64,000 nucleotides of DNA from Mobula hypostoma (lineage: Eukaryota), in NCBI RefSeq assembly GCF_963921235.1, contig NC_086097.1, positions 54,190,001 to 54,254,000 on the forward strand, in the 5' to 3' direction. The translations under genes and the position numbers were made by a program. The notes under the pieces are model-generated. The model was not told the origin of the DNA. It ran no database searches and saw only the letters and a list, made by a program, of their open reading frames with translations. Shown in pieces: positions 2,474 to 64,000 of the stretch; the stretch's first letter is position 1; the number at the start of each line of letters is the position of its first letter.

Positions 2474-2845
2474 TGTCATGGTCCCATCTGGCTGTCCCCC
2501 ATCTTGCTCCTATCTCCTTGATTATGCCTTAATTCCAGTCATTATATTCCCAATTGCTGCTAGTTCACTTAATTACAGCACACCTGGTTTCCATCAGAGA
2601 CTGCAAGATAAGAACTCTAGCATCACAACCACAGGTCGCCAGTTTGTTGGCTGACTCCAGTGTGTATTAACCTCATTTCCTGATCTCTTAGGACCATTAG
2701 TTCAAAGCTCCACTCCATTCTCTAGATATTCTACGAAAACTTTGTCTCCAAGTCAAGACTCCCCAGGTTATCTGTTCCACACTCGACCCTGTCCCCCTGC
2801 CTGTGTCCTGCGCTTGGGTTCATCCCCAGACCCTCCCTTGCAACA
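2474..2845. mobile_element. Solo LTR (372 bp)
   Basis: TGTCA...CAACA termini with an exact 5-bp TSD CTTCC (2469-2473 and 2846-2850). It interrupts the PLE. Confidence 0.8.
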
Positions 2846-2979
2846 CTTCCACTTTCAGCAGGGATTGCTCCCTCCATGATTCCCTTGTCCATTCATCCCT
2901 CCCCACTAATCTCCCTCCCAGCACTCGTACCTGCAAGCAGCCTAAATGCGACACTTGCCCATACACCTCCACTGTCACC

Positions 2980-4143: not shown

Positions 4144-4718
4144 ATTCAGGACCCCAGGCAGTTCTTCCAGGTGAGGCAACATGTCACCTGTGTACCTGTT
4201 GGAGTTGTCTATTGTGTCTGGTGCTCCCGATGTGGCCTCATCTACAATGGTGAGATCCATCATAAATTGGAGCACCTCCACACCGTTCGGCAAAAGTGGG
4301 ACTTCCCAGTGGTCAAATATTTTAATTCCGATCCCCATTCACATTCCATCATGTCAGTCTATGGCTTCCTCTTGTGCCAAAACGAGGCCACCCTCAAGGT
4401 AGAGGAGCAACACCTTATATTCCGTCTGGGTAGCCTCCAACCTGATGGCATGAATATCAATTTCTCATTCTGGTAAACAAATTTCCCCCTACCACCTCTT
4501 CCTCTATTCCCCACTCTAACTCTTCTCAACTGCCTATTATTTCCCACCTGGTCCCTTCCTCCTTCCCTTTTTCCTTTTGTCCACTTTCCTCTCCAATCAG
4601 ATTCCTTCTTCACCAGTGCTCTACCTTTCCCACCCACCTGGCTTCACCTATCACCTTCCAGCTAGCCTCTTTTCCCTCCCACCATCTGTTTATTCTGGCA
4701 TCTTCACCCTTCCTTCTC

Positions 4719-4754
4719 AGTCCTGAAGAAGGGTCTCAGCCTGAAACGTCATCT
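4719..4754 (+). ncRNA. Minimal hammerhead ribozyme motif (PLE pLTR)
   Basis: agtc-CTGAAGA-A-gggtctcagcct-GAAACGTC. Core intact, stem I partly decayed. Confidence 0.6.
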
Positions 4755-5316
4755 ATTTATTCATTTCTATAGATGCTGCCTGACCTGCTGTTCCTCCAGC
4801 ATTTTGTGTGTGTGATCTAGAAGACATGCTGTCTTCTGGACTCAACAGTTCCATCAGTTGTTTAAACTCTGTTGCATTGCAGCAATATTAAAACAAAGCC
4901 TGGAGTTCAAGTTTCATCAAGCTGACTTAATTTTACCACCATAAACATGTTTGAAGCATTTTGTCTGTGTTGCTCTGAAGTTTCAGCATCTGCAGAATAA
5001 CGTGTTTATTAGTGCTGTAGTTACGACAACAAAAAGCAGCTCATGTATTTACGATTAAAGCAAAGAAGATAAAAACAAATGTGTAACAAATTGAGCAAAT
5101 TTGTTCTTCTACTGTGCCAACAGACATGGTTTGTAATACATTCATTAGCCAATGGTTAACTTTTCTCAAGCACTTTAGTTATGAATACAAAGGACCACAA
5201 GCTTATCAACTGAAGGCCCAAAAGACAGTTAGAGATAAGTGCACAATATATGATCCAGTTCAAATAAATAAAATCATTAAAGCAACCAGTATTGATGAGG
5301 CAACTTTGTGAACTTT

Positions 5317-10281: not shown

Positions 10282-10679
10282 ATGATTGTAAAGAGGGAAA
10301 AAAATAATGAGTGTGAGGAAATTTTTATTTTCAGTAGGAGGTGATGGGTGACAGGAAGTGGTAACCTTGGTCTTGAAAATTGTTGAAGACAAAGCAGGAT
10401 ATTTGTAGCTATGTGGCTAAGTGTTGTAGTTAAAGCAGAGGAATGGAAGGAATTTAGGGTTTTGCTGGGGTGTTGGACGTAACTAGGTCAACAAGTCAGT
10501 TTGTTTCTCACTTAAACATTATTGACTGAATATAAATATTTCAATAACCTTCACATAGTCACAGTCTGAAAAATTATACCTTTGAAATATCCATTTCTAC
10601 TTATAATTTTTAAAATCGCACATTTCTGGATCGATTTTATCCTTAATGCAGTTTCAAACATTTGACATTTGTCATTGAG

Positions 10680-11240
10680 ACACATTGGTCTATGGCCTCC
10701 TCTATTGCCATAATGAGCCATAGTCATGTTGGAGGTGTGACACACCATATTCCATCGGGGTAACCTCCAACCTGATGGCATAAACATCAATTTCTTTAAT
10801 TTGTGGTAATATCTCCTCCTGCCCCTTCTTTCTTTTTCCATTCAACATTCTGGCTTCCCTCGCATCTCTTCTCCTTCCCTGTCCATTACCTCTCTCTGGT
10901 GCTCCTGTCCTTCCCTTTCTTCAATGTTCCACTGTCCTCTCCTATCAGATCCCTTCATCTTCAGCCCTTCACTTCTTTACCTATCACGTCCAAGCTTCTT
11001 ACTTCATCCTGCTCTTGAACTACCACCTTCCCCCTCAACTGGTTTCACATATCACCTGCCAGGCTCTACTCCTCCTCCTCTCCCCTCCTCCTTATTCTGG
11101 TTTCTTTCCCCTTCCTTTCTGGGCAGGATGAAGGGTCTCAACACAAAACGTCAACTATTTATTCCTCTGCAGAGATGCTGCCTGACCTTCTGAGTTCCTC
11201 GTGTGAGTTGGTCAAGATTCCCAGAATCTCTTGTGTTTTT
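10680..11240 (+). mobile_element. Penelope-like element 3' fragment (GIY-YIG end and pLTR)
   Basis: ctccaacctgatggcataaacatc (LQPDG.NI), a pyrimidine-rich UTR, and a degenerate hammerhead at about 11121-11156. Confidence 0.8.
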
Positions 11241-12520: not shown

Positions 12521-14833
12521 CATAAGAACATGAGAAATAGGATCAGGAGTAGGCCATCTGGCCCATCGAATCTGCCCACCATTCAATAAGATCATGATGG
12601 CTGATTTGTCCGTAAACTCAGCTCCATCTGCCTGCCTTTTCCCCATAATCCCTAATTCCCTTACTATATAAAAACCTATCTAACTGTTTCTTAAATATAT
12701 TTAGTGAGGAAGCCTCAACTGGTTCCCTGGGCAGAGAATTCCACAGATTCACCACTCTCTGGGAAAAACAGTTTCTCCTCATCTCCGTCCTAAATCTTCT
12801 CCCCTGAATCTTGAGGCAATGTCCCCTAGTTCTAGTTTCACCTACCACTGGAAACAACTTTCCTACTTCTATCTTACCTATCCCTTTCAAAATTTTGTAT
12901 GTTTCTATAAGATGCCCTCTCATTCTTCTGAACTCCAGAGAGCATAGTCCTAGATGACTCAATCTCTCCTCATAGGTTAACCCCTTCATCTCTGGAATCA
13001 ACTTGGTGAACCTCCTCTGCACTGCCTCCAAAGCCAGTATATCCTTCCTCAAGTATGGAGACCAGAACTGCACACAGTACTCCAGGTGTGACCTCACCAG
13101 TACCCTGTATAGTTGCAGCATGACCTCCCTGCCTTGAATTCAATCCCTCTAGCAATGAAGACCAACATTCCATTTGCCTTCTTAATAACCTGTTGAACCT
13201 GCAAGCCAACTTTTTGCAATACATGAGCAAGCACTCCCAAGTCCCTCTGCACAACAGCATGCTGCAATCTTTCACCATTTAAATAATAATCTGCTCTTCT
13301 ATTATTCCTTCCAAAGTGGATGATCTCGCATTTACCGACGTTGTATTCCATCTGCCAGACCTTGGCCCACTCAATAACCTATCTATATCCCTCTGCAGAC
13401 TCTCCACATCCTCTGTATAATTTGCTTTTCTACTCAATTTAGTGTCATCAGCAAATTTTGCTACACTACACTCAGTCCCCTCTTCCAAATCATCAATGTA
13501 GATGGTTAACAGCTGCGGGCCCAGCACCGACCCCTGCGGCACCCCACTCACCACAGACTGCCAACCGGAAAAACACCCATTTATACCAACTCTCTGCCTT
13601 CTCTTGGTTAACCAATCCACTATCCATGCCAGTACACTTCCTCCGACTCCATGCATCCGTATCTTATTTTTAAGTCTCTTGTGTGGCACCTTATCGAACG
13701 CCTTCTGGAAATCCAAGTATATGACATCCACCTGTTTCCCCTCTATCCACTGCACTCATTATGTCCTCAAAGAACTCCAGTAAGTTTGTCAAACAGGACC
13801 TGCCCTTTTGAATCCATGCTGCGTCTGTCTCATGGAACCACTCCTTTCTAAATGTTTCGCTATTTCTTCCTTAAATACAGCTTCAAGCATTTTCCCGACT
13901 ACAGACATTAAGCTAACTGGCCCATCTTTTGCCTATACCCTTTTTTAAAAAGTGGCGTGACATTTGCTGTCTCCCAATCAGCTGGGACCTGCCCAGCGTC
14001 TAGAGAGTTTTGATAAATGATTACCAACGCATCAACTATAACCTCCGCCAATTCCCTCAGAACCCTGGGATGCATCCCATCAGGACTAGGGGACTTATCT
14101 ACCTTCAGGCCCTCTAGTTTGCTCGTCACTATCTCTTTTTAATGACAGTGATTTTATTGAGGTCCTCACCTCCCATTTCGTCCATAACATCCTTCTTCGA
14201 CATATTAGATATGTCCTCCACTGTGAAGTCCGACACAAAATAGTCGTTCAATGCCTCAGCCATTTCCTTATCACCCAATATCAATTTCCCCTTCTCGTTT
14301 TCCAAGGGACCTACGTTGACCTTAGCCACCCTCTTCTGCTTCATATATTTATAAAAACTTTTGCTATCTGCTGTTATATTTTGTGCTAATTTACTTTCAT
14401 ACTCTATCTTCCCTTTCTTTATTTCTTGTTTAGCTGTTCTCTGTTGCTTTTTAAAGTTTTCCCAATCCTCCAGTCTCCCACTACTCTTTGCGACTTTGTA
14501 CACGAGCTTTTAATTAGATACTATCTTTTATTTCCTTAGTTATCCAAGGCTGGTTCTCCCCACACTTACTGTCCTTACTTTTGACTGGAACGTACTTTTG
14601 TTGAGCACTGTGAAAAATCTCTTTGAAAATATTCCACTGTTCCTCAACTGTCCTACCAAATAGCCTGTGCTTCCAATCCACATTAGTCAACTCCTCCCTC
14701 ATCCTGTTGTAGTCTCCCTTGTTCAAGCATAATACGTTAGTTTTAGATCTATTTCATCCTCCATCTGAACACGAAATTCAATCATACTATGATCACTCTT
14801 TCCAAGAGGATCCCTGACTATAAGATCGTTAAT
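12521..14833 (-). mobile_element. CR1 LINE (5'-truncated ORF2 and 3' UTR)
   Basis: ORFs contain VDVIYLDFQKAFDKVPH, GVPQGSVLGP, KFADDTKL, HLEYCVQFWSP and FSQRVVNLWNSLP. Tail cataagaacat. Confidence 0.95.
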
Positions 14834-19300: not shown

Positions 19301-19929
19301 TAGCAATAATAGGTTCTATATAAATGAAAGTTCTTTTTACCACAGAGGTTAACAAGCTTCCTTGCCAAAATCTGAGTTAGGCTTCATAGTTTAACTATAT
19401 AATACCACTTAACCCAAGTAAAACTTGTCTCATTAGATACCATTCATTAATAAATCAATGTAAATTTTAAAAATTTCAACTATTTTGGGTAATGAACCTG
19501 GCCAGGTGACCGGCTTTTCAAAGGGTGAGCAGTTTGGGAACAATGATCACAACTCCTTCTGTTCTAAGATAGCTATATATAAGGGTAAGTATAGACCTTG
19601 TGAGAGAGTATTAAAATGGACCAGGGCAAATTACGAGAGCATTAAACAGGAACTAGGGAGAGTTAATTGGGAAGAGTTGTCTTTGGCAAGTCCACACCTG
19701 ACAATGGGAAGGGTACTTAAAGACCAGCTGCATAGAGTACAGGAAACGTACGTTCCAGCCAAAAGGAAGAACAAGGATGACAAGGTAAAGAGAACTTTGC
19801 ATGTTGAGGGAGGTGATGAATTTAGTCAACAAAAAGGAAAAGTATGCAAGGCTTAGGAAGCTAGAATCAAACAGAGCCTTGGAGCTTTATAAAGAAGTCA
19901 GAAAATAACTCAAGAAGGGAACGAGGAAA

Positions 19930-20143
19930 AACATCGAAAACGCTGGAGGAACTCAGCAGGTCAGGCAGCACCAGTGGGAATGAATAAACAGTGGACATTT
20001 CAGTGCCCGAATGCAGGGTCTCGACCCGAAATGTCAACTCTTTATTCATTTCCATAGATGTTGCCTGATCTGTTGAATTCCTCCAGCATTTTGTTTGCTT
20101 TGCCTTGGATTTTCAGCATCTGCCGATTTCCTCATGTTATTAC
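19930..20143. mobile_element. Penelope-derived inverted pLTR insert
   Basis: Imperfect inverted arms (aaaacgctggaggaactcagcagg... / ...ctgttgaattcctccagcatttt). Degenerate TSD ggaacgaggaaa (19918-19929) and ggaatgaagaaa (20144-20155). Confidence 0.75.
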
Positions 20144-20186
20144 GGAATGAAGAAAGCTAAGAGTAGCCATGAAAAGTTCTTGGCAA

Positions 20187-20451
20187 CACACATCAAAGTT
20201 GCTGGTGAACGCAGCAGGCCAGGCAACATCTGTAGGAAGATGTACAGTCGACGTTTCGGGCCGAGACCCTTCGTCAGGCCTAACTGAAGGAAGAGCTAGT
20301 AAGAGATTTGAAAGTGGGAGGAGGAGGGGGAGATCCAAAATGATAGGAGAAGACTGTACCTCTTCCTAGAGATGCTGCCCGGCCTGCTGCGTTCACCAGC
20401 AACTTTGATGTGTGCTGCTTGAATTTCCAGCATCTGCAGATTTCCTCGTGT
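20187..20451. mobile_element. Penelope-derived inverted pLTR insert with 15-bp TSD
   Basis: Exact TSD AAAAGTTCTTGGCAA (20172-20186 and 20452-20466), inverted arms, and a hammerhead on the minus strand. Confidence 0.9.
20246..20281 (-). ncRNA. Minimal hammerhead ribozyme motif
   Basis: Minus strand reads aggc-CTGACGA-A-GGGT-ctcg-GCCC-GAAACGTC-gact. Confidence 0.7.
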
Positions 20452-21456
20452 AAAAGTTCTTGGCAAGTAGGATTAAAGAGGTATTCTATACATACATAGG
20501 GAGCAAGAGGACAACTAGGGAGAGGGTATGATCACTCAAGATTGAAGGGGGAACATTTGTTTGTGTGCAGAGGATATGTATAAAGTTCTTAATGAGCATT
20601 TTACATCAGTATTTACCAAGGAGAAGGATGTGGAGGACAGGGAGATCAGTGCCAATCATAGTAATATGCTAGAGCATTTTGAAGTAAAGGCATAAGTAAT
20701 ATTAGGTCTTTTAAAGAGCATTAAAGTGGATTAGTCCCTGGGAACTTATGGGATATACCCCAGGTAATTGAGAAAGTAAAGTAAAGAGATTGGGGCCTTG
20801 ATCAATATCTTTGTGTCCTGTCTAGCCACAGTTGAGGTCCCATAGGACTGGTGAGTGGCTAATGCTGCTCCACTGTTCAAGAAAGGAACCAGGGATAATC
20901 CAGGAAACTCTAGACTGCTGAGTTCCATGACAGCAGTGGTCGGGAAGTTACTGGAGAAAATTCTTACGGATAGGATTTATGTGGATTTGGAAAACCATGG
21001 TGCAATTAGATTGGGCCAGCATGGCTTTTGTGGGGCAAGTCGTGTCTTACTAACTTGATTGAGTTTTTTGAAGAGGTAACGAGGGTGATTGATGAAGGTA
21101 GAGCTGTGGATGTTAGTCTACATGGATTTTTGTAAGGTGTGTGACAAGATCCCTCTTGGGAGGTTCGTCCAGAAGATTAAGATGCATGGGATTAGCTGTT
21201 TGGATTCAGAACTGACATTCCCATAGAAGACAGAGGGTGGTGGTCGAAGGGATTTTTTTCCAGCTGGGGGTCTGTGATTAGTGGTGTTCTGCAGGAATCT
21301 GTACTGGGACCTCCACTGCTTATGATTTATATAAATGGCCTGGATGAAAATGCAGGTGGGTTGATTAGTTAGTTTGCAGTTGATACAAAGGTTGGTGATG
21401 TTGAAGATAGTGTAGATGACTGGCGAAGAAAACAGCGGGATATAGATCAGTTGCAG

Positions 21457-26117: not shown

Positions 26118-26413
26118 GGCAGCATGGTAGTGTAGTGGTTAACACAACACTTTACAGTACAGGTGACCTGGGTTCAATTCCCACTGCTGCCTGTAAGGAG
26201 TTTGTAGGGTTTCCCTGTGGTCGCATGGGATTCCTCCGGGTGCTCTGGTTTCCTCCCACAGTCCAAAGATGTATCGGTTGGTAGATTAATTGGTCATTGT
26301 AAATTGTCCCATGGTTAGGCCAGGGTTAAGTCGTGGGTTGCTGGGCGGCAGGGCTCGAAGGGCCAGAAGGCCACGTTCTGCGCTGTATCTCAATAAACAA
26401 ACAAACAAACAAA
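26118..26413 (+). mobile_element. tRNA-derived V-domain SINE (HE1-like)
   Basis: A-box TGGTAGTGTAGTGG, B-box GGTTCAATTCC, V-core GGAGTTTG...CCTCCGGGTGCTCTGGTTTCCTCCCACAGTCCAAAGA, a CR1-like 3' end, and an (AAAC)n tail. Confidence 0.88.
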
Positions 26414-30853: not shown

Positions 30854-32678
30854 TATTTACTTAGAGATACAGCACTGTAATAGCCTCTTCCAGCCCAATG
30901 AGCCCATGCTGCACAATTGCACCCATGTGACCAATTACTTTCTTTCTTTTCAAATCTTTTTTTATTATTATTATCCAAAATTAACATAAGTACATTTAAG
31001 TAAGCAACACTTACAATGTCTCCAGAAAAAAAACATTATTTTAAAGATTGAAAAAATTTTGGTGATTAAAAAAAACCCCTACTAAGCAAGAAAAAGTGGG
31101 GGAAAAAAACCATTAGGTGTACAACCCCGGAGCAATGCGTCATACAAAAAGCTTCTAAAGATAAACATCAAACCGCCAGGAAGAAAGAAAAATGTACCAA
31201 AAATTTACAATTCCATCGTGGAGGAAATCTATCAATTAACTCAAATGATAATAACGAGCAAATTAACCCCATCTTTTCTCAAAATCAAACAAAGGTTCAA
31301 AGGTTCGACTTCTAATTTTCTCCAAACTAAGACATAGCATCACTTGAGAGAACCACTGTGACAAAGTGGGAGCTGATGTATCCTTCCACTTCAACAAAAT
31401 GGCCCTCCTATCTATCAATGTAACAAATGCAATAACATGTTGGTCAGACAGAAATACCACAGATACTTTGAGGAATTATTCCAAAAAGCACAGTTAATTT
31501 GTTAGGTTGTAAATTAATTTTAAGTGCTTCAGAAATTGTCGAAAAAACTGACTTCCAGAACTGTTCTAGTATAGAACAAGACCAAAATATATGTGTCAGT
31601 GTAGCTGTCTCAGTTTTACATCTATCACAATAACTATCAACATTAGGGAATATTTTAGACAATCTCTCCTTCGTCAAATGGTAACGATGTAAATTTTAAA
31701 TTGAATCAGTGAATGACTAGCACAGATCAAAGAAGAGTTAACCAGCTTCAGAATCTGTGTCCAATCCTCCGTCATAAAAGTCAAATTGAGTTCCTTTTCC
31801 CAATCTTGTTTAATCTTAAATAAAGGACACTTATCCCATTGTAATAGTAAATTATGTATTCTACCAATAGAACTGTTCATGGAAGGGTTCATACCCATAA
31901 TAGTATCTAACAGGTCAGCATCCAATATGTGAGGAAAATTACTTAAATATTTTTGGAAGAAATGTCTAATGAAGGTATTGTAAAAAGTGTGAGTATGAAA
32001 GAGAATATTTATCAATTAATTGTTCAAAAGACATCAGTCTATCTTTTTTAAATAAATCCAAAAAAGAATTAATACCTTTACTTTCCCAAAGTAAAAATAT
32101 TGGATCACTCAAAGAAGGCTTAAAAAAGTAATTTTGATAAATTAAACTCGAAGTTTAAATTTTTTAGGATTAAAAAACTTGCGGAACTGGAGCCAAGTTT
32201 GTAAAGAATCCTTAATCACAGGGTATAAGTTTAAGTTAGCAACTTTAGCTAATTGTATAGGTAAAGCAGCTCCCAATAATGAGGTTAAATAAAACTTTTT
32301 CACAGCTTTCAATTCCAAGTCTACCCAAATTGGCCGATTGTTCTTATCAACCCAATATAACCAAAAGGACATGTATCGCATATTAACAGCCCAGTAGTAC
32401 ATTCTTAAATTAAGCAAAGCGAGACCTCCACCCTTTTTCAACTTTTGTAAGTGACATTTACTAATTCTTGGTGTTTTAGTATTCCAAATAAAAGATCATG
32501 TGACCAATTACTACTAACCCTTACGTCTTTGGAATGTGGGAGGAAACGGGAACACCTGGAGGAAACCCACGCGGTCACGGGGAGAACATCCAAACACCTT
32601 ACAGGCAGCAGTGTAGTTGAATCCGAGGCGCTGGCACTGTAATCGTGTTATGTTAACTCCACGCCACCGTGCTGCCCC
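30854..32678 (-). mobile_element. V-domain tRNA-SINE split by an L1 insertion
   Basis: Head and V-core at 32513-32678 (minus: ggggcagcacggtggcg..., ggattcaact, ggtttcctccaggtgttcccgtttcctcccacattccaaagacgta). 3' part at 30854-30939. Confidence 0.8.
30940..32496 (-). mobile_element. 5'-truncated L1/Tx1-clade LINE
   Basis: GGLALLNLRMYYWA and a CCHC knuckle CDRCKTETATLTHIFWSC. A-rich tail. Exact 16-bp TSD CATGTGACCAATTACT (30924-30939 and 32497-32512). Confidence 0.92.
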
Positions 32679-33489
32679 AAATACTATTTTACCATAATAC
32701 AAATCAAAAGTTCTGGAAAACCTCAGTTAAAGTGGCACCTGCGGAAAGAGAAACAATATTATCATATCAGGTCAGGCATACCTCATCAGAACTGAAAGAA
32801 AGAACAAGCTAGTTTTAAGTTGCAGATGTTGTGATTTTGGAATGAATTGGGATAAAGAGAGCACTTTGAAAAAGGTTGACTTAGTGAAAAGATGTTAATG
32901 AAGCTACTTGGTGTGGCAGATTAAAGATGTTAGTTAGAGAGAGAGGAAACAAACAAAGTACTATGTAAAGGCTGCAAAATGTGTTCGCATGACTTAGAGC
33001 AGAAATAGCCAAGCAGAGAAAGCAAGTTGTGGTTGTTGATTCAGTATTGTACCTGGAAGGATACAAGCTTTAGCTTTTTCAGACTTCCAGTATCTGGGGT
33101 GTTTCAAACTTTATTTTTAGAAATTGGAATCCTGGGCATTCATGAATTCCAACAGTCGGAATTGAAATAAACTACTTGCAAAAATTGCACAAGAGACTCT
33201 GCAAAGAAACTAGACAAAAAGAGGCTGACTAATGAAATAGAAACAAAAGGCAATAACAACCACTGTCAATAGCTTTAAATTCTAAGGTCTGTCTTTCATC
33301 TAAGCCAAAGTGATTGTAGGAGACTTGCTATACTCTTAACTTAGTGAATATAAAATTATTTGCCGTGCCTTGCACCCTGGACATTCCTAATCCACATGCT
33401 TCAGCTGTTGGTAATTTTTTTTCCTAAATCTTTCTGCTGATCACTAACCATTCAATTTTGGCTTAAAGTCCAAACCTGCAAAAGTTTAA

Positions 33490-38420: not shown

Positions 38421-38554
38421 TGTTTAATGTCATCTACAGTACACAAGTGTTAAGGAGAACAAAATAACTGTTACTCTGATGCAGGCCAAATAACACAGTA
38501 AGATAAAGAACTCAATAATAAAAAGAGCACAATAAATAGAGTATAAATACATGA

Positions 38555-39100
38555 CATACATCAAAGTTGCTGGTGAACGCAGCAGGCCAGGCAGCATCTA
38601 TAGGAAGAGGCGCAGTCGACGTTTCAGGCCGAGACCCTTCGTCAGGACTAACTGAAGGAAGAGTGAGTAAGGGATTTGAAAGCTGGAGGGGGAGGGGGAG
38701 ATGCAAAATGATAGGAGAAGACAGGAGGGGGAGGGATGGAGCCGAGAGCTGGACAGGTGATAGGCAGAAGGGGATACGAGAGGATCATGAGACAGGAGGT
38801 CCGGGAAGAAAGACGGGGGGGGTGACCCAGAGGATGGGCAAGAGGTATATTCAGAGGGACAGAGGGAGAAAAAGGAGAGTGAGAGAAAGAATGTGTGCAT
38901 TAAAAAGAGTAACAGATGGGGTACGAGGGGGAGGTGGGGCCTAGCGGAAGTTAGAGAAGTCAATGTTCATGCCATCAGGTTGGAGGCTACCCATACGGAA
39001 TATAAGGTGTTGTTCCTCCAACCTGAGTGTGGCTTCATCTTTACAGTAGAGGAGGCCGTGGATAGACATGTCAGAATGGGAATGGGATGTGGAATTAAAA
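38555..39100 (-). mobile_element. Penelope-like element 3' fragment with 13-bp TSD
   Basis: FNSTSHSHSDMSIHGLLYCKDEATLRLEEQHLIFRMGSLQPDGMN. Exact TSD TATAAATACATGA (38542-38554 and 39101-39113). Confidence 0.92.
38614..38649 (-). ncRNA. Minimal hammerhead ribozyme motif
   Basis: Minus strand reads AGTC-CTGACGA-A-gggtctcggcct-GAAACGTC-GACT, with stem I AGTC/GACT. Confidence 0.72.
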
Positions 39101-40254
39101 TATAAATACATGAGATAGTTTGTATATACAGATCTGCAATAGTGGCTGGATTCAGGTGTTATGGAGGTTGTTGAGGTGCATGATGACACCCCAATCTCCT
39201 TCTATCCAAAACATGCACAGAATACATTAAGTTCATCACTGTTGTCAGTGATGCAGTCTGACTCCATTATAGCAAGTAAGTCATGCTACAACTGATGACT
39301 AGTCTGAGCTCAAACTCAGCTTTGGACCGGACTGTCTATTGGCTTCTGTGATAGCTTTACACAGGTTGTATCTAGATTTCTTGTAAGGGTCTGGGTCTCC
39401 TGATCTGAACACCATGATCCTAGACTTCAGCAGGGAGTGAATCTCTTGGTTCATCCACGGTTTCCAGTTTGGGGAAACCCAGATTGTCCTGTTTGGTGTA
39501 CAGTCCTCAATTCACTTGATGATGTAGTCTGTAACAGTGGTGGCATGTTTATTTAGGCCAATTACCAACACAAAGCAGTCACACAGAAGCTCATCTGTTT
39601 CCTGAGACCAGCAGAGTAAGATGTTCTCTATCAGATCCTCCTATGTCAGCTTCTATTTGTATGCAGGGAGAAGCAGTACAGCCCGGTGGCTTAATTTACC
39701 AAAGTGTGGGTGGGGCTAGGTTGGTAGGCATCTTTGATGGTTGTACAGCAATGATCGAGAGTGCTTGAGCCATTGGTAGGCCAGGAATCATGCTGTTAAT
39801 ATTTTAGTAAAATACTCTTGAAGTCACTGGCAATAATTAAGAAGATCTCAGGGTATACCATTTCAAGGCTGTTGACCATAGATTATAGTTCATTGAGGGC
39901 ACACTTCACAGCCACCTGGGATGGGATGTAGACTGCTGTCAGGATAGCTGAAGTGAACTCCCATGGCAGATAGTATGGGTAACACTTCACTAATAGATAT
40001 TCTGATAGGGGAGCAGGAGCTCAATTCACTGATTTCTCACCATCCCTGTAACATGACTGGATTCTAGCCATTCTGTAAACCCTGCAACCAAGTATTACTT
40101 GGGCACAGATATTGGAAAGTCATCAGCCTAGAAATATGAATGTGTAGCACTATTTATTACAGTGCACAAGTATGGGTTTTGTTTTCTGGATTGGAACAGA
40201 ATCATAATTTCTGTGTTGAAAATCACCACTCTACTTCCATTAGCCAATTCAAGC

Positions 40255-44678: not shown

Positions 44679-44852
44679 ACACACACAAAAAGTGCTGGTG
44701 AATGCAGCAGGCCAGGCAGCATCTATAGGAAGAGATACAGTCGATGTTTCGGGCTGAGACCCTTCGTCAGAACTAACTGAAAGAAGAGATAGTAAGAGAT
44801 TTGAAAGTGGGAGGGGTAATTTCCAGCATCTGCAGATTTCCTCGTGTTTGAG
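44679..44852. mobile_element. Penelope-derived short inverted insert
   Basis: Minus-strand pLTR with a hammerhead remnant, then a plus-strand tail ttccagcatctgcagatttcctcgtgtttg. Flanks ctcctgtgaggct and ctcctaagaggct (11/13 match). Confidence 0.8.
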
Positions 44853-44964: not shown

Positions 44965-45642
44965 TCAAGGTTCAAGATTCTTTATTGTCATTCTAACCGT
45001 ACATCAGCTCTGCGGGGCAGAATGAGACAGCGTTCCTCAGGGGCAGTGCAATCATAACATAACAAACGCAACACTAAATAATAAACGTAACAATAAATAG
45101 TAAAACACAACAGCCACATGTCAGTTAAATCAGCTATAAGTGTCCAGTGCAAGTTAAAAGTGTCCAAAGCAGAGTCAGGTGGAGCAGCTATTTAGCAGTC
45201 TGACTGTCTGTGGGAGGAAGCTGTTTAGTAGCCTTGTGGTTTTAGTTTTGATGCTCCTGTAACGTTTGCCTGATGGCAGAAGAACAAACAGTTCATGGAG
45301 AGGGTGTGAGGGGTCTTTAATGATGTACCGTGTCTTCTGGAGGCATCGACTCTGAAAGAGGTCTTGGACAGAAGGTAGGGAGACCCCAATAACCTTCTCT
45401 GCTCCCCTAACCACCCTCTGCAAGGCTTTTTTGTTGACAGCACTGCAGCTGGAGTACCAGGTTGTGATGCTAAAGGTCAGCACACTCTCAACCACGCCTC
45501 TGTAGAATGTAGTTAAGATGTTAGTGGGGAGTGATGCTTGTTTAAGCTTCCTCAGAAAGTGCAATCTCTGCCCGGCCCGTTTCACAATCCCAGTGGTGGT
45601 CCTGGACCAGGTGAGATTGTCCGAGATCTGCACCCCAAGGAA
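44965..45642 (-). mobile_element. Rex1/Babar LINE 3' fragment
   Basis: ORF 45175-45633: QRLHFLRKLK..VESVLTFSITTWY..LLPSGKRYRSI. Confidence 0.88.
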
Positions 45643-46146
45643 CAGAATGCAACAGAATGGAAAATGCTGTAATATTATATAACGAAGAAAAGATGCGTAT
45701 GTTACTTAGAAATCAGGCCGTATCTGTGGGAAGAAAGAAAGAGTTTATTAAGACTTCAGGTCAAGACTATTTATTTCTCTCCCTATCATTGCTATTTGGC
45801 CAGCTGAGTTTCTCTCACACAATTTTCATTTTTACTTCAGATTTTTATCAGCTACAGTGTATTGCTTTTCAATTACTGCCTTATTTTATGATTATTGTGC
45901 TCAATATCTTCTCATGTTCAACATCCTGGTTTTCTTCAAAACATAGTCTGACATCCCTTGCACTCAACACAATGTCATAAGGCACCCAATATCTAGTTAA
46001 CAGTATCTGGGTTCTGAGATCACCACAGAGTGCCCTGATCCTGTACTCCAGCTGTCATAATTGATCTTGCATCACCACATTACACTCTTCCATGTAAAAT
46101 CCATGCTGAATATGTACTACTCCATCCTGAAACCGAGGCTCTAAAT

Positions 46147-50438: not shown

Positions 50439-50574
50439 CAGTCCTGATGAAGCATCTCGGCGCGAAACATCAACTGTTCACTCTTTTCCATAGATGCTGC
50501 CTGGCATGCTGAGTTCCTCCAGCACTTTGTGTGTGTTGCTTTGGATTTCCAGCATCTGCAGATTTTCTCCTGTT
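50439..50574 (+). mobile_element. 136-bp PLE-derived mini-element starting at the hammerhead
   Basis: Exact TSD TTAGATAT (50431-50438 and 50575-50582). Begins CAGTC-CTGATGA-A...GAAACATC-AACTG. Confidence 0.82.
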
Positions 50575-51259
50575 TTAGATATGTTGTTTTATTGGTGATG
50601 GTAACACAAACTAGCTTCCATTTTCTCTCTGGTTATAGAAAGGTGACAAAATAGCAAGAAACTAGTGAAAAGATGTCTCATACTGGGATAAGTTACAACA
50701 CCACCTCAGATCTCAATCACTGCTCTGTTATATAGGAAAATACTCCAATATACTCCGGCTTTCTTTCATTAAAAGCAATAAACGTGGAGCAGTTCAGTTA
50801 CCCCTCAAGCACACAGAATGTCCACCACACTCCAGTTAAAACCTGCTGCCATATTTAAGGCATTACCATATTTGAATGTTCCATGGCATCACAAAAGGAA
50901 AAAAATAAAATTGTACATTAGTGACTTTAGTACTGGTAGCTGTTTATGTCTGGTCCAATGACATATGACAGCATGAATAACTAGTCTAAAATCATACAGC
51001 TAGTGTAAAGACACTGTTCAAATCTCTGTTCTCTTTCACTTCATGTTCACGTGCTCAAGGTGAAAAACATTTTGTGCATAATGGAGTAAATCTTTTAGCT
51101 GCACTTGGAGAAAAAAGAATTTCAGTCCGATTGGATCCATTCAGGAATGCTAATATTAATCTATTATTTCTGCAGAATCATAGCTTAATAGCAGTGTGCA
51201 CCATAGGAGAATACATTAAGAACAAATTACAGCCTTTACTACTCAAAAATCAGTAAATG

Positions 51260-51897
51260 TCCCGACGCAGACTGGGAGATCGTTTCGCTGAACACCTACG
51301 CTCTGTCCGCCAGAGAAAGCAGGATCTCTCAGTGGCCACACATTTTAATTCCACGTCCCATTCCCGTTCTGATATGTCTATCCACGGCCTCCTCTACTGT
51401 AAAGATGAAGCCACACTCAGGTTGGAGGAACAACACCTTATATTCCGTCTGCGTAGCCTCCAACCTGATGGCATGAACATTGACTTCTCAAACTTCCGCT
51501 AATGCCCCACCTCCCCCTCGTACCCCATCCGTTATTTATTTATATACACACATTCTTTCTCTCTCTTTCCTTTTTCTCCCTCTGTCCCTCTGACTATACC
51601 CCTTGCCCATCCTCTGAGTTCCCCCCCACACCTTTTCTTTCTCCCTGGGCCTCCTGTCCCATGATCCTCTCATATCCCTTTTGCCAATCACCTGTCCAGC
51701 TCTTGGCTCCATCCCTCCCCCTCCTGTCTTCTCCTATCATTTTGGATCTCCCCCTCCCCCTCCCACTTTCAAACCTCTTACTAGCTCTTCTTTCAGTTAG
51801 TCCTGATGAAGGGTCTCGGCCCGAAACGTCGACGGTACCTCTTCCTAGAGATGCTGCCTGGCCTGCTGCGTTCACCAGCAACTTTGATGTGTGTTGT
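51260..51897 (+). mobile_element. Penelope-like element 3' fragment (GIY-YIG C-terminus and pLTR)
   Basis: RRLGDRFAEHLRSV..VATHFNS..EEQHLIFRL.SLQPDGMNIDF. Close relative of 38555-39100 and 63449-64000. Confidence 0.92.
51800..51833 (+). ncRNA. Minimal hammerhead ribozyme motif (best-preserved core and stem II)
   Basis: GTC-CTGATGA-A-GGGT-ctcg-GCCC-GAAACGTC-GAC. Predicted cleavage after C51830. Confidence 0.75.
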
Positions 51898-52547
51898 TAA
51901 ATGATGTGTTGAATGGATTCCTACTTTGAAAACATTTTTTCCTTAATAAGCCACTATTTCCATTTTGACTTTGGGTTATTTTATCATAAGTGATCAAAAT
52001 GATCAGTTATTTCAATACAGATATGAAATCTAATCATTAGAAATTTGGATTAACTTCATCATGAGATAACATTTGGAGAATTGAACAGCTCTATAATATG
52101 AATGTCAGTAATTTTAATCTGTCTTTTGTCATTTTAGATACCAATGGATCTACTGGTGATCATCAGCATCTCCTATTTTAGTACTCGGTTCACCACTTTT
52201 GCTCTTGAACTCATGAATATCATTAGTCAATCCCTGCGAAATATAAAACAGGATCATTTGAAATTCAAAACTGAACACCAACAAAATGGTTTACGTAGCA
52301 CTACCGATCCTGCAAAATGTCACAAGATACTTTACAGGAACAACAGCAATCAAAATTTAGGAAGCGAACACAAGGAAGGTATTGGAACAAAAAAACAAAT
52401 ATTTGATCAATGAAATAGGTTACAATAAGGAAAGAGAAATGGAGAAGTGGGGAGCTTTAGGAAGGGAACTCCAGATCTAATGGAGCAGCTGGTGGAAGTG
52501 TGACTGTGAGGGATACGTAAATTCAATCATTTGACAGCAACTACACT

Positions 52548-52616: not shown

Positions 52617-54824
52617 GGGTTTATTATCACCAGCAGGTGTCATGAAATTTGTTAACTTAGCAGCAGCAGTTCAATGCAATGCATAATATAGAAGAAGAAA
52701 ACTAATAATAAAATAATTATTAATAATAAATAAATAAATAAATAACAGTATACGTATATTGAATAGATTAAAAATCATGCAAAAACAGAAATAATATATA
52801 TTTAAAATGTGACATGGTGTTCACAGGTTCAACATCCGTTTAGGAATCGGATGGCAGAGGGGAAGAAGCTGTTCCTGAATCGCTGAGTGTGTGCCTTCAG
52901 GCTTCTGTACCTCCTACCTGATGGTAACAGTGAGAAAAGGGCATGCCCTGGGTTCTGGAGGTCCTTAATAATGGACGCTGCCTTTCTGAGACACTGCTCC
53001 TTGAAGATGTCCTGGGCAATTTGTAGGCTAGTACCCAAGATGGAGCTGACTAAATTTACAACCCTCTGCAGCTTCTTTCAGTCCTGTGCAGTAGCTCCCC
53101 CATACCAGACAGTGATGCAGCTTGTCAGAATTCTCTCCACGGTACATTTATAAAAGTGTTTGAGTGTATTTGTTGACATACCAAATCTCTTCAAACTCCT
53201 AATGAAGTATAGTCGCTGTCTTGCCTTCTTTATAACTGCATTGATATGTTGGGACCAGGTTAGGTCCTCAGAGACCCTGACACCCAGGAGCTTGAAACAG
53301 CTCACTCTGAGGATTGGTATGTGTGCCTTTGTCTTACCCTTCCGGAAGTCCACGATCAGCTCTTTTCTCTTACTGACATTGAGTGCCAGGTTGTTGCTGC
53401 GACACCACTCCACTAGTTGGTATATCTCGCTCCTGTACACCCTCTCGTCTCCAGCTGAGATTCTACCAACAATGGTTGTATCATCAGCAAATTTATAGAT
53501 GGTATTTGAGGTATGCCTAGCCACACAGTCATGGGTATAGAGAGAGAAGAGCAGAGGGCTAAGCACACACCCCTGAGATGCACCAGTGTTGATCATCAGT
53601 GAGGAGGAGATGCTATCACCAATCCACACAGATTGTGATCTTCTGGTTAGGAGGTTGAGGATCCAATCGCAGAGGGAGATACAGAGGCCCAGGTTCTGTA
53701 ACTTTCTCAATCAGGATTGTTGGAATGATGGTATTAAATGCTGAGCTATAGTCGATGAACAGCATCCTGACGTAGGCGTTTGTGTTGTCCGGGTGGTCTA
53801 AGGTCATGTGAAGAGCCATTGAGATTGCATCTGCCGTTAACCTATTGTGGCGATAGGCAAATTGCAATGGGTCCAGGTTCTTGCTGAGGTAGGAGTTCAG
53901 TTGAGTCATGACCAACCTCTCAAAGCATTTCATCACTGTAGATGTGAGTGCTATCAGGCGATAGTCTTTAAAGCAGCTCATGTTATTCTTCTTAGGCACT
54001 GGTATAATTGTTCCCATTTTGAAGCAAGTGGGAACTTCTGCCAGTAGCAGTGAGTGGTTGAAAATGTCCTTGAATATTCCCACCAGTTGGTTGGCACAGG
54101 TTTACAGAGCCTTACCAGGTACTCCATCGAGATCTTCCACCTTGTGAGGATTCACTCTCTTTAAAGACAGTCTAACATCGGCCTCTGAGACAGAGGTCAC
54201 AGGGTCATCAGGTACAGCAGGGATCTTCACAGCTGTAGTTGTGTTCTCCCTTTCAAAGTAGGCATAGAAGGCATTGAATTCATCTGGTAGTGAAGCATCG
54301 CTGCCATTCATGCTATTGGGCTTCACTTTGTAGGAAGTAATGTCTTGCAGACCCTGCCAGAGTTGCCATACATCCGATGACGCCTCCAACCTTGTTTGAA
54401 ATTCTCTCTTCACCTTTGAAATAGCCCTCTGCAAATCATACCTGGTTTTCTGGTACAGACCTGGGTTGCCAGACCTGAATGCCACATATCTCCCTTCAGC
54501 AGATGACGTACCCCCTGGTTCATCCACAGCTTTTGATTTGGGAATGTACAGTAAGTCCTTGCAGCCACACACTCATCTACACAGGTTTTAATGAAGTCAG
54601 TAACAACTGCAGCATACTCAACCAGGTTCGAAGATGAATCCCTGAATACAGTCCAGTCCACCGATTCAAAGCAGTCCTGTAGGCACTCCTGTGCTTCCTT
54701 TGTCCAAACTTTCTTAGTCCTCACTGTTGGTGCTGCAGACTTCAATCTCTGCCTATACTCAGGGAGTAGAAGTACAGCTAGGTGATCAGACTTCCCGAAG
54801 TGAGGGCGTGGAATAGCACTGTAG
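52552..54824 (-). mobile_element. Rex1/Babar LINE (about 2.3 kb, 5'-truncated)
   Basis: [30 protein letters not shown] and KFADDTTIVG motifs. (ATCAGA)n tail. Flanking repeat ACTATCA (52545-52551 and 54825-54831). Confidence 0.93.
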
Positions 54825-55340
54825 ACTATCAAAGCACCACTCATGTTCTTTTTGTTGTAAAAGAAAAATACCCCAGCAACAGAAAAGCAAAGTCCAAGTT
54901 AAATTTTCAGATTTATCTAATGGTAATACGGACCACAGGTTTTGTTTCTGAATGAAAGCAAAATAAGGGAAAATGAAGATCAAATTCCATTCTGCACATG
55001 ATGAGTTCTGTTAGTCCAACCCAATCCAATTACAGAAATGACAGTTTAAGGAGATGGAGACCCTGGAATACAGACGTGACTCTTCTGGAGATTTATTTTT
55101 AAAGCCATGAACGCTTTTGACTATCCAGCTCACTTTGCTTCTTCATCTTTCACATTTTTTTTCAAACCAGCCTGTAACTTCCTTGTTCATTTCTGGTCTG
55201 ATTTTCCTGCCATGATTTTCATGCTATCGGACCAAACTCTGGGCAAACCAGGGAACTATATATAAACAACATTTGAAGAACTATATGTGAACAATGCCAG
55301 AGGGAGCATTGTTTCAAAATAATATCAATGTTTTTGATAT

Positions 55341-55470
55341 TCTGCCGAAGGGTTTTGGCCCGAAATGTCGACTCTACTCTTTTCTATAGATGTTGCCTGG
55401 CCTGCTGAGTTCCTCCAACATTTTGTGGGTGTTGATTGGATTTCCAGCATCCGCAGATTTTCTCTTGTTT
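55341..55470 (+). mobile_element. PLE pLTR mini-fragment
   Basis: ctgccgaagggttttggcccgaaatgtcgact...ttccagcatccgcagattttctcttgttt, with the same extent as 50439-50574. Confidence 0.7.
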
Positions 55471-55714
55471 TGGATCTTTTTCACTTTGTACTAGTTACTA
55501 CTGTTGCTTGTAAATCAGAGATTCAAACCTCATTGTAGAGACTTGAAGATAGACTAACATTTTGGTACGACATTGGACACACAGTCAAAAGGTGATTTAC
55601 TGAAAAACCTCATCTCCCAGCAGGACAGAAATATTACGTGGTAACATTAAAAGTGTAACAGAGCAAGTCCATTGCAATACCCAATACTTAGCCCTCAACA
55701 TAGGCAAAAGAAGA

Positions 55715-55870
55715 AACAGCAGATGCAGAAATCTAGAGCAGCACTCCGAAGCTGGAGGACCTCAGCAGGTCGGGTATCATCCACGGAGGGAAGTAGGTTT
55801 TCAATGTTTTGGGTCAAGAACCATCATCTGGACTGAAAGATGATGGAGTTCCTCCAGCTTTTTGTGTGTG
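55715..55870 (-). mobile_element. Degenerate PLE pLTR fragment with partial inversion
   Basis: gcagatgc..gctggaggacctcagcagg.. and an inverted gagttcctccagc. Confidence 0.55.
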
Positions 55871-56994: not shown

Positions 56995-57620
56995 CAAATC
57001 AAATCATGTTTAATTATCATTCAAACCATACATGGATACAGTCAAACCAGACAGTGTTCCTCTGGGGCCAAGGTGCATTACTTTCAAAACAGCGAGCAAG
57101 AAAGAAAACACACATTGTTACACAAAAAACACATGTTCTATCCAAGCCCCTGAGCGACATGCAAATTGATGGTACAGCTCCCGGCAATCCAGCCTGTCAT
57201 TCCGATGTCTTCAAGTAGCAGGCAGCAGGACAGTCTGCACCCAGATCAGCTCCTCCGAACCCAATCCAGCCCATCTGCTGGCTTCTCCTTCTTCAGCCTG
57301 AGCGCCGGCTTTTCCTTTTCCAGCCCAAGCACCGGCTTCTCCTTCTCTGGCCCAACCACCAGCTTCCCTCTCTCTGACCCAAGCACTGGCTTCTCCTTCT
57401 CTGATCCAATGGCCAATTTCTTCTTTATCAACTTGTCAATCGGCTCCTTTGACGCCCCAGGCAGCTGCTCTGAACAGCGAATAACTGATGCAGTAGACCT
57501 GCTGTACCCACTGTTTGTGGAGTCCAATACAGTCTTACAATCATAAAAAATACATTTTAAAACAAAAGTACACCTTTGGTTGACTCCCGAGGGGCCACTG
57601 CATTTGAACTCGCTGCCATA
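56995..57620 (-). mobile_element. Non-autonomous element with a LINE-type tail and an internal minisatellite
   Basis: The tail at 56995-57075 resembles 978-1050. No RT coding sequence. Confidence 0.45.
57268..57429. repeat. 27-bp minisatellite, 6 diverged units
   Basis: Units start at 57268, 57295, 57322, 57349, 57376 and 57403. Consensus is approximately AGCCCAAGCACCGGCTTCTCCTTCTCT. Confidence 0.85.
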
Positions 57621-58285: not shown

Positions 58286-58455
58286 GGAACACACATCAAA
58301 GTTGCTGGTGAACGCAGCAGGCCAGGCAGCATCTCTAGGAAGAGGTACAGTCGATGTACCTCATCCTAGAGATGCTGCCTGGCCTGCTGCGTTCACCAGC
58401 AACTTTGATGTGTGTGTTTCTTGAATTTCCAGCAACTGCAGAATTCCTGTTGTTT
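58286..58455. mobile_element. PLE-derived palindromic insert with 13-bp TSD
   Basis: 61-bp arms at 58289-58349 and 58355-58415 (1 mismatch, 5-nt loop). TSD GGAAGATGATTAT (58273-58285 and 58456-58468). Confidence 0.9.
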
Positions 58456-59840: not shown

Positions 59841-60622
59841 CAAACACTATAAAATCTGCAGATGCTGGAAGTCCAACGTATCTCACACAAAATGCTGGAG
59901 GAACTCAGCAGGCCAGACAGCATCTACGGAAAAGAGTAAACAGTCAACGTTTTGGGCCGAGACCATTCATCAGGATTGGAAAGGAAGGGGAGAAGTCACA
60001 GTAAGAATAGTTGGAAATTGATTGGTGAAAGAAATGAAGGGTTGGGGAAGGGGGAATCTGGTAGGAGAGGACAGAAGACCATGGAAGAAAGGGAAGAGGG
60101 AGGTGCACCAGAGGGAGATGATGGGCAGGTAAGCTGATGAGGTGAGAGAGGTAAAGAGGAATGGGGAATGGTGAAGGGAGGGGGACAATTACCAGACGTT
60201 CAAGAAATCAATGTTAATGCCTCCGGTATATTGGTGAGACCCGATGTAGATTGGGAGACCACTTCACTGAGCACCTATGCTCAGTCCGCCGGAAAAAGCA
60301 GGATCTCCTGGTGGTCACCCATTTCAATTCTACTTCCCATTCCCAGTCTGATACGTCAGGCCATGGCCTCCTCTACCTTCGTGATGAGGCTACAGTCAGG
60401 TCAGAGGAGAAGCACCTTATATTTCGTCTGGATTGCATCCAACTTAGTGGCTTCTTGCCCTTCCCTTTACTTCACCCTCTCCCTCTCCTGGTTTCACCTG
60501 TCACCTGCCACTTTGTACTTCTTCCTCCCCTCCACCCATCGCCTTACTCTGACTTCTCCCCATCCTTTCCAGTCCTGAATAAGGGTCTTGGCCCAAAACG
60601 TCTCCTGTTTACTCTTTTCCAG
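59841..60622. mobile_element. Penelope insert (inverted pLTR and GIY-YIG remnant) inside a CR1 3' end
   Basis: GDHFTEHLCSVRR..EEKHLIFRL and two oppositely oriented hammerhead remnants. TSD GGATTATTTTA (59830-59840 and 60623-60633). CR1 flanks at 59700-59830 and 60634-60705. Confidence 0.85.
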
Positions 60623-61374
60623 GGATTATTTTAGTTGGCTATCTGATTATTAATTTATCTGGTTAAGGTCTGTTTCTGTGCTGTACTGTTCTATGTTCTA
60701 TTTTCTAGAATAGATTTTAACACAAAGGCAATGAAAAGTTTGAAGGATGGTATTGTATGTTGAAGGTTTTCCTTTTCTCATCTTCATGTCAATTGCTCTC
60801 TTACACATAAGCACACACTATTGCAGATGATTTTATCTACATATAGTATTTTGCAACCTCTAAGGTGCTACATTAATGCAATTTGTTGTTACCTTGTCAT
60901 TTAAATTTAATTTCAAGACCACTATGTCTAAACCCTCCACTTTTTCTAAAATTTCACCCTGGTTGTCCCGTATCTAAATCTGAATGACAAGGGATTTTCT
61001 CCGTTAATTACGTGCCACTTCCAAGTCAGTTGTCTGTGAAGCCATACCGTTCACAATTTGGTTCCCTTTCTGATCCTGAGCTGAGTGTTGGACTGTTCAT
61101 CTGTGGCACCTCTAAGGCATTTTTATTTTCATCTAATCGACTCTTCCGCTATATCCCCCTTTCCTGTCAAATTCTCCTCAAACCAAAGGCTGAGCTATTC
61201 CAGTGCACTAGTGGCCAGCTTCCTTTATTTTGCCCCGGTCAAAGCTGAACCCTGGGGCTCAAACCTGATTTTTGTCAAGTCCTATTCACCCACCTTATTG
61301 GGCTTGCTGACCAACCATTACTCCAATCCTCCTCCATTCCATACCTCCAAGGACTGTCCCATTCTAACAACGTT

Positions 61375-63445: not shown

Positions 63446-63448
63446 GCA

Positions 63449-64000
63449 GCACACACAAAAAATGCTGGTGAACGCAGCAGATCAGGCAGCATCTATAGGA
63501 AAAGGTGCAGTCGACATTTCGGGCCGGGACTCTTCATCAGCACTAACTGAAAGAAGAGCTAGTAAGAGATTTGAAAGTGGGGGAGATCCGAAATGATAGG
63601 AGAGACAGGAGGGGAGGGGTGGATCTAAGAGCTGGAGAAGGGAGAGGATCATGGGATGGGAAGCCTGGGGAGAAAGAGAAGGGGGGAGGGGAGCCTGGAG
63701 GGTGGAGAGCAGGCAAGGAGTTATAGTGAGAGGGACAGAAGGAAAAAAAGAGAGAGAGAACAAAAGGGAGGGAATAAAAAATATATAAAAATATATTAAA
63801 TAAATAGATAAGGGATGGGGTGTGAAGGGGAGAAAGGGCATTAATGGAAGTTAGAGAAGTCAATGTTCATGCCATCAGGTTGAAGGCTACCCAGATGGAA
63901 TATAAGGCGTTGTTCCTCCACCCTGAGAGTGACTTCATCTTGACAGTAGAGGAGGCCGTGGATAGACATATCAGAATGGGAATGGGATGTGGAATTGAAA
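63449..64000 (-). mobile_element. Penelope-like element 3' fragment (runs off the window)
   Basis: Same family as 38555-39100. GIY-YIG C-terminal codons at 63840-64000 and a hammerhead remnant at about 63509-63544. Confidence 0.88.

Follow-up and report, generated by a model that had tools for sequence, protein, structure and literature searches.

A probable minimal type-I hammerhead at the end of a truncated Penelope-like element of Mobula hypostoma

The sequence at positions 51800-51833 of a 64,000-nucleotide stretch of the Mobula hypostoma genome (contig NC_086097.1, positions 54,190,001 to 54,254,000; hereafter the window) is very probably a minimal type-I hammerhead. It is located in the end repeat of a Penelope-like element of the kind that encodes an endonuclease (EN+ PLE), here truncated at its 5' side. 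Such a motif would cut only as a dimer, likely in the RNA of the parent element and with the help of its protein, while this lone copy and those around it in the window have probably lost activity and are decaying. Minimal hammerheads of this class (min-HHRs) are described as lacking helix III, which two copies supply through their palindromes, with monomers inactive and dimers weak (PMC4209133). According to this scheme from the literature, the loopless ACGU palindromes of two motifs would pair to form helix III, and each core would cut its partner after C17. The motif would serve the tandem RNA of the parent element, and reverse transcription would start at two sites just downstream of it; because of this starting point, nearly every truncated insertion would carry the motif or part of it, explaining the density of motifs in the window. 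In Anolis carolinensis, reverse transcription of the Poseidon element began at two sites delimiting the tail, its motif was cleaved only with the element's protein, ribozyme mutants still inserted in vitro, and RNA-seq ends at the cut site were not found in the material reported (PMC11167929).

The motif was delimited as 51798-51835 on the plus strand from its letters, a strict descriptor and a check of the helix pairs. Helix I consists of a 5' strand at 51798-51802 and a 3' strand at 51831-51835, where the family letter at 51834 was taken from two assemblies: the copy under study carries a private T-to-G change there, while T makes up 97-98% of the aligned contig depth in both assemblies. The inner helix I strand GTC (51800-51802) is followed by CTGATGA (51803-51809), an extra A (51810) between A9 and G10.1, helix II (51811-51822, with GGGT at 51811-51814 pairing with GCCC at 51819-51822), GAAA (51823-51826), the loopless palindrome ACGU (ACGT in DNA, 51826-51829), C17 at 51830 and GAC (51831-51833). 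The predicted cut falls between C51830 and G51831. Thus the CUGANGA and GAAA core, the UH cut site, the G10.1-C11.1 pair and the loopless palindromic helix III of the min-HHRs are all present in this copy; C11.1 is replaced by U in 28-35% of the aligned contig depth, with pairing retained. The initial annotation had read stem I as GTC/GAC, which is indeed found in this copy, although the family helix I comprises five base pairs (YAGUC/GACUG) rather than three. The loopless ACGU and the extra A, which it also pointed out, are in the letters and had already been published for the class (PMC4209133).

Using a strict descriptor (a 3-bp helix I, the core, an optional extra base, a 3-bp helix II, GAAA, pairing of 15.2 with 16.2, and UH), we found two sites in the window, at 51800 on the plus strand and at 38615-38648 on the minus strand, and no match of any kind in 200 shuffles. 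A looser core pattern matched nine times against 1.39 expected, and six of the nine were family members. The suggested search with hammerhead models gave a divided result, as the descriptor succeeded while an Rfam covariance-model search of the window (E up to 10) returned seven matches, none of them to a hammerhead family. Such a miss would be expected for a motif that has no helix III.

Penelope-like ancestry, already proposed in the initial annotation, is borne out by the surroundings of the motif: a GIY-YIG frame ends 300 nt upstream of it, and the shared element end follows 65 nt after it. This frame (51260-51502, plus strand) is the 5'-truncated C-terminal part of the endonuclease with its stop codon. 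Its identity is 91% with a protein of Mobula hypostoma and 83-87% with three proteins of Hypanus sabinus; ray proteins at 91% and 86% have the full series of reverse transcriptase, linker and GIY-YIG. Its relatives (P0001-P0005) carry a reverse transcriptase, a CxxxxCxxC linker and, in P0001-P0003 and P0005, a C-terminal GIY-YIG domain, with Pfam scores below the curated cut-off. The order of reverse transcriptase, CX2-5CxxC linker and C-terminal GIY-YIG that characterizes EN+ PLEs of the Neptune/Nematis type was seen in these relatives and in the remnants at 2217-4467 and 51260-51499. Judging from these sequences, the family probably belongs to the Neptune-type Penelope-like elements, Neptune versus Nematis being assigned by the linker motif and not by a tree. 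The frame is followed by a pyrimidine-rich 3' UTR or pseudo-LTR (51503-51797), the motif, and a conserved block (51836-51896) that runs to the shared element end at about 51896, this copy being without a tail. The insertion is flanked by a putative 6-bp target-site duplication (51254-51259 on the left and 51898-51903 on the right).

Coding remnants of the element occur at seven places in the window, where copies run on into endonuclease coding sequence. Mapping of the element end gave about 22 pieces, which share a common end near the equivalent of 51896, some with a further tail of about 40 nt; behind 51896, 487 and 509 contigs have loose ends in the assemblies of two organisms. In these assemblies, 196,184 and 108,895 contigs match the stretch, figures that indicate great abundance and are not a copy number. 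Two raw-read runs of DNA gave 3 and 0 matching reads, and runs presumed to be RNA contain about two thirds of the sequence words searched. Six head-to-head inverted pairs are present in the window, each with one tail-bearing arm. Among 11 insertions examined for target-site duplications, adjacent ones of 8-13 bp were found in five and of 6-7 bp in three, while none was convincing in the other three. Three of the five longer duplications flank inverted pairs, so that each of those pairs is a single event. An inverted truncated partner, an optional tail at one end and a target-site duplication make up the architecture of EN+ PLEs. Canonical EN+ PLE insertions (PMC8557442, PMC3846280) likewise show 5' truncation, an inverted truncated 5' partner, target-site duplications and palindromes at the inverted junctions, with a tail of 30-40 bp at one end only, as here. 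In contrast, the available passages of these two sources make no mention of 5' ends clustering at the helix I edge, which we describe below. A head-to-tail tandem of the motif was absent from the piece map of the window, and none of its eight tandem arrays contains the motif. A contig joint leading from 51896 back to 51341, seen in both assemblies (2 and 1 contigs), suggests that partial head-to-tail tandems exist elsewhere in the genomes.

An ungapped scan with a threshold of 21/34 or better gave 14 rows, namely 13 family members and one unrelated sequence (46871); together with gapped copies at 1820 (plus) and about 32760 (minus), the family has 15 copies in the window. The dozen or so copies reported earlier were thus recovered at all 13 named positions, while those at 55800 (minus) and 32760 (minus) had been missed. 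The catalytic core (CUGA-N-GA and GAAA) is kept in 7 of the 13 ungapped copies, and ACGU in four of these seven. These are the four that had been described as intact; however, the inner three pairs of helix I survive in only two of them, as the motif at 4720 retains 2/5 helix I pairs and that at 20247 has a G-A mismatch in helix I. The two fully intact motifs lie on opposite strands, 13 kb apart. One is the copy under study, and the other (38613-38650) belongs to a solo truncated minus-strand copy at 38554-39101 with a 12-bp target-site duplication. The longest copy (2217-4822, plus) extends from the end of the reverse transcriptase through linker, endonuclease and UTR to the motif with the broken helix I (4720-4753), and is interrupted by a LINE-like insertion.

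Among the inverted insertions, that at 20184-20452 has a 12-bp duplication and comprises a minus copy with the mismatched motif (20247-20280) and a tail-bearing plus-strand partner, which begins at the cut site with a 3-nt microhomology. The arms of another, at 58288-58455 (13-bp duplication, without a ribozyme core), join at a GTCGAC palindrome centred on the cut site. The insertion at 44679-44852 combines a minus copy, whose motif at 44740-44773 has an intact core and helix I but ACAU for ACGU, with a tail-only partner. Decayed motifs are found in the remaining three, at 59842-60626 (59943 minus and 60572 plus; 11-bp duplication), at 19900-20138 (20005 plus; second subfamily) and at 55706-55870 (55800 minus; an old insertion). 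Short tail-bearing plus-strand copies include 50439-50575, which begins at the first base of helix I and has an 8-bp duplication; 55339-55475, which begins at the helix I edge, has a broken core and retains a substrate half that could pair with the copy under study on paper; and the old copy at 1818-1945, which also begins at the helix I edge and has a decayed motif. The copy at 50439-50575 is the nearest same-strand neighbour of the copy under study, and its motif is decayed (ACAU, mismatches in helices I and II). Decayed motifs are also present in an old plus-strand copy at 10652-11229 (at 11122) and in a truncated minus-strand copy that extends beyond the window end (63446-64000, at 63510-63543), while a very old minus-strand copy at 32680-32800 is a weak match. 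Two small orphan pieces of the element end lie at 4955-5007 and 45765-45814 (both plus), the latter a weak match that begins at the cut-site position.

The majority letters of the two subfamilies agree in 35/38 columns of the ribozyme, compared with 5/23 upstream and 6/13 just downstream. However, the next downstream block is nearly as well conserved (31/35 columns), so that conservation alone does not single out catalysis. In the assemblies of the two organisms, 747 and 775 contigs of the other subfamily cease matching right after 51833. Variants in the motif region, among the 40 of 371 rows listed, affect N7, C11.1 and 51834 and none affects the core. Covariation among the 15 window copies was not above that of shuffles (161/500 and 131/500), and core changes (7/115) did not differ significantly from those of the downstream block (40/417; p 0.27). 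Both results are as expected for dead copies, and the variation within the window looks like neutral decay. The earlier proposal to refute the motif by a lack of stem covariation across genomic copies was ill-posed, because inserted copies decay neutrally; the outcome among window copies was negative, and we infer that selection acted on the parent elements rather than on inserted copies.

Metagenomes were scanned with a pattern of this core in which GUC/GAC of helix I and the ACGU were fixed and the middle was free, yielding 28 loci (L001-L028). They fall into several related groups and represent several repeat families without sequence relationship to one another. In 12 of their 18 distinct middles, helix II can form with 4 bp or more, against 0.5 in shuffles (helix I being part of the search pattern), and this cross-family pairing supports the fold. 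No Penelope protein was found within 300 bp of the 28 loci, and a second pattern, taken from the sequence after the cut site, had no match among viral or metagenome contigs.

According to the folding predictions, the lone motif adopts an inactive hairpin in which G5-A6-N7-G8 is paired with C15.2-G16.2-U16.1-C17, and forming the active homodimer from two folded monomers is calculated to cost about 10-12 kcal/mol. Fourteen same-strand combinations of enzyme and substrate (two of them homodimers) retain at least three helix I and at least two helix III pairs, and for all 14 the prediction is unfavourable, with energies 3.6 to 18.1 kcal/mol higher than those of the separately folded RNAs. These energies come from a nearest-neighbour model without tertiary terms for the core, which could understate dimer formation. 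The best pairing near the copy under study, with 51800 as the enzyme on 55339 at a distance of 3.5 kb, is uphill by 5.4 kcal/mol. Even with the partner at 1 mM, no more than 3e-6 of the RNA is predicted to be active. Fold z-scores were unremarkable (-0.17 and -1.24). In addition, the core and the 5' strand of helix II in the copy under study are predicted to be 82% paired to the UTR before them (11 bp within 51784-51814), as against 39% when the UTR was shuffled. We considered whether such masking is a general feature and rejected this, as p was below 0.05 in 4/5 related subfamily-A copies, 1/4 subfamily-B copies and 3/21 metagenome loci (the 28 loci less one with a short flank and six duplicates). 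At two metagenome loci, L006 and L007, the sequence preceding the motif could pair with the motif's helix II strand (at least 12 bp in L007), a possible on/off switch, with the overall 3/21 near chance.

The family closely resembles the min-HHRs of metazoan PLE pseudo-LTRs (PMC4209133): both are type-I motifs with CUGANGA plus one extra base, G10.1-C11.1, GAAA, loopless palindromic 15.2-16.2, a short helix I, U-rich flanks and a location in the end repeat, and both occur mostly as solitary copies with some close pairs on opposite strands. The published consensus reads CUGANGAH / G...C / GAAAN palindrome UH, and its C-G palindrome and extra base recur in the rows for fugu, Tetraodon, cichlid and lamprey as they do here; the supplement file searched contained no row from a shark or skate. 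Helix II, at 4 bp, is at the short end of the published range, and the window yielded neither a full-length element nor a tandem one. These features, the extra base, the loopless C-G palindrome and the dimer model, including pairing through the palindrome as the initial annotation correctly stated, have thus been known since 2014 (PMC4209133), and what the family adds to the class is a new and very abundant member from cartilaginous fish. In the mainly open-access literature, we found neither this ray family nor insertion ends at the cut site reported before. In both the ray family and Poseidon (PMC11167929), the element can end at either of two closely spaced sites beyond the hammerhead, with an optional tail between them, and the both-strand cleavage described for Poseidon would suit the two-armed insertions seen here. 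The ray element is set apart by the CxxxxCxxC linker of Neptune/Nematis. In Poseidon the ORF starts inside helix II, and its cleavage was measured, whereas the ray family is known here from sequence and predicted folds.

A family of this abundance offers thousands of insertion junctions, and counts of their 5' breakpoints at the helix I edge and at the cut site could help to show, without bench work, whether hammerheads of this class act in cells and to what purpose. The outer edge of helix I is a favoured starting point of short insertions, also in the assemblies of the two organisms, and there is weak evidence that two or three start at the cut site. Among 15 short pieces, the first base lies no more than 3 nt from the outer edge of helix I in four and no more than 3 nt from the cut site in three. 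The starts of 19998, 55339 and 55846 (minus) were set by eye from the junctions; alignments placed them at -25, -31 and -43, giving an edge count of 3. For the edge cluster, p was 0.002 for a fixed window and 0.147 when any window was allowed; for the cut-site cluster, p was 0.019, or 0.10 without the weak 45765 piece. Before 51799, 544 and 581 contigs have loose ends, which are long (median 80 and 123) and agree poorly (0.38), compared with 0.44 and 0.43 at the true element end and 0.62 and 0.67 at the subfamily boundary (51833). This supports a likeness of the 51799 ends to a true element end and not to a subfamily boundary, though subfamily-B UTR is included. An association of the tail with edge starts was considered and rejected (4/11 against 0/9; p 0.094). 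No start at the cut site was seen among the 12 loose ends listed (1796 more) or the 15 joints listed (220 more). The GTCGAC sequence is itself palindromic and offers microhomology for head-to-head joining, which counts against the cut-site reading. From one side of the cut site to the other, contig depth increases by 34% and 58%, perhaps because the motif is rich in CpG and decays.

Both a transcript start site and a splice acceptor would suit the edge, two possibilities that these data do not tell apart. As to the latter, the UTR (51503-51797) ends like a 3' splice site, with a branch-like A at 51780, a pyrimidine tract and TAG at 51798-51800; a branch-point-like A, a pyrimidine tract and YAG ending at helix I were present in 5/6 copies examined (51777-51800 in the copy under study). 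As to the former, the edge fits the initiator-like consensus YYANWYY (compare the promoter passages of PMC2377424). Two origins of edge starts found no support: trimming of cDNA to the base of a hairpin, as the DNA hairpin was predicted to be marginal in 4/4 copies folded, and spliced RNA, as no shared first exon was seen and no donor was found in three subfamily-A copies.

From these observations arises the alternative that the motif is kept as an RNA structure, or as a promoter or splice landmark for replication, with cutting incidental or absent. We regard this as unlikely, though it is the most probable of the competing explanations. It would suit the short insertions, whose starts favour the helix I edge over the cut site, the initiator-like and acceptor-like features of that edge, the intron of D. 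virilis that ends at the same place (PMC4209133), the in vitro insertion competence of the Anolis ribozyme mutants (PMC11167929) and the Naiad elements that thrive without the motif. Against it, nucleotides relevant only for catalysis are common to both subfamilies and to unrelated families, the Anolis motif does cleave once its protein is added (PMC11167929), and no splice donor was found in the three subfamily-A copies scanned. A somewhat fainter and quite speculative prospect is that the 5' breakpoints are a fossil map of the ends of element RNAs, where reverse transcription from the 5'-proximal end repeat would run off either at the helix I edge (the transcript start or splice acceptor, with the upstream masking hairpin gone) or at G1.1 of ribozyme-cut RNA. 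The G1.1 class, if true, would be genomic evidence of in vivo cutting by a Penelope hammerhead, countable from assemblies alone.

It is improbable that the copies form a non-autonomous tandem retrozyme or SINE family with a master of its own instead of being truncated Penelope ends. Four to five short copies of about 135 bp do share a common start and end, and tandem retrozymes derived from such end repeats are known, a cartilaginous fish being among their hosts (Li, Clavereau and Pollet, bioRxiv 10.64898/2026.07.22.740005). These non-LTR retrozymes, like the ray copies, are PLE-derived type-I hammerheads with dispersed monomer offspring; they are defined, however, by head-to-tail tandem units with intact motifs, and here the motif is missing from all eight tandem arrays. 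Moreover, seven copies extend into endonuclease coding sequence, and short copies are found as arms of inverted insertions, together with longer copies inside one target duplication.

The initial annotation went further than truncated, inactive element ends and proposed that tandem or neighbouring copies cut read-through or host pre-mRNA. In this form, dispersed same-strand copies in one long transcript would pair through ACGU and helix I and cut it; this would matter more than the preferred reading, if true, and we consider it very improbable, as it is without support here. Its favourable points are the 14 same-strand combinations that pair on paper (e.g., 51800 on 55339), the extreme abundance of the family, and a 2026 preprint reporting that related tandem retrozymes are depleted in Xenopus introns (bioRxiv 10.64898/2026.07.22.740005). 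However, the window holds no tandem, its intact motifs are on opposite strands, all pairings are uphill with the minute active fraction given above, and the core under study is itself predicted to be largely masked by upstream sequence. Published evidence is also unfavourable, including the inactive monomers and weak dimers (PMC4209133), the lack of cleavage in vitro by 8/9 Xenopus retrozyme dimers (bioRxiv 10.64898/2026.07.22.740005) and the RNA-seq ends not found at the Anolis cut site (PMC11167929). The pre-mRNA itself is hypothetical because a host gene could not be identified in the window: a Pfam scan of 190/230 open frames gave only a retroelement zinc finger and weak matches, the 40 others being in or beside known retroelement remnants. 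An open frame behind an acceptor-like site at 52138-52410 (plus) was considered as a host exon and rejected, as a convincing relative was not found.

That the hammerhead likeness arose by chance in a GC-rich repeat end, to which the missing Rfam match, the ordinary fold z-scores and the lack of covariation among window copies might point, is practically negligible in view of the strict descriptor (two matches against 0/200 shuffles), the agreement with the published consensus at the published position (PMC4209133) and the independent pairing of helix II in unrelated families.

The inverted insertions at 58287-58417, 20184-20452, 19900-20138 and 59842-60626 would form near-perfect RNA hairpins of 60-70 bp or longer if transcribed, and double-stranded RNA is more plausible than cleavage as an effect on host RNA. 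Weak Rfam microRNA matches at 58287-58417, below the gathering score, stem from the inverted insertion there. Other repeats of the window include remnants of several LINE families at 7483-9970 (plus), 12618-14509 (minus), 45175-45705 (minus) and 53078-54898 (minus), three of which have endonuclease and reverse transcriptase matches. A repeat with a tRNA-like head, probably a SINE, occurs at 26118-26296 (plus) and 32501-32676 (minus), the two being 77% alike with a weak tRNA-Sec match. Finally, a 27-bp tandem repeat of 4.8 copies at 57280-57409 is open in several frames.
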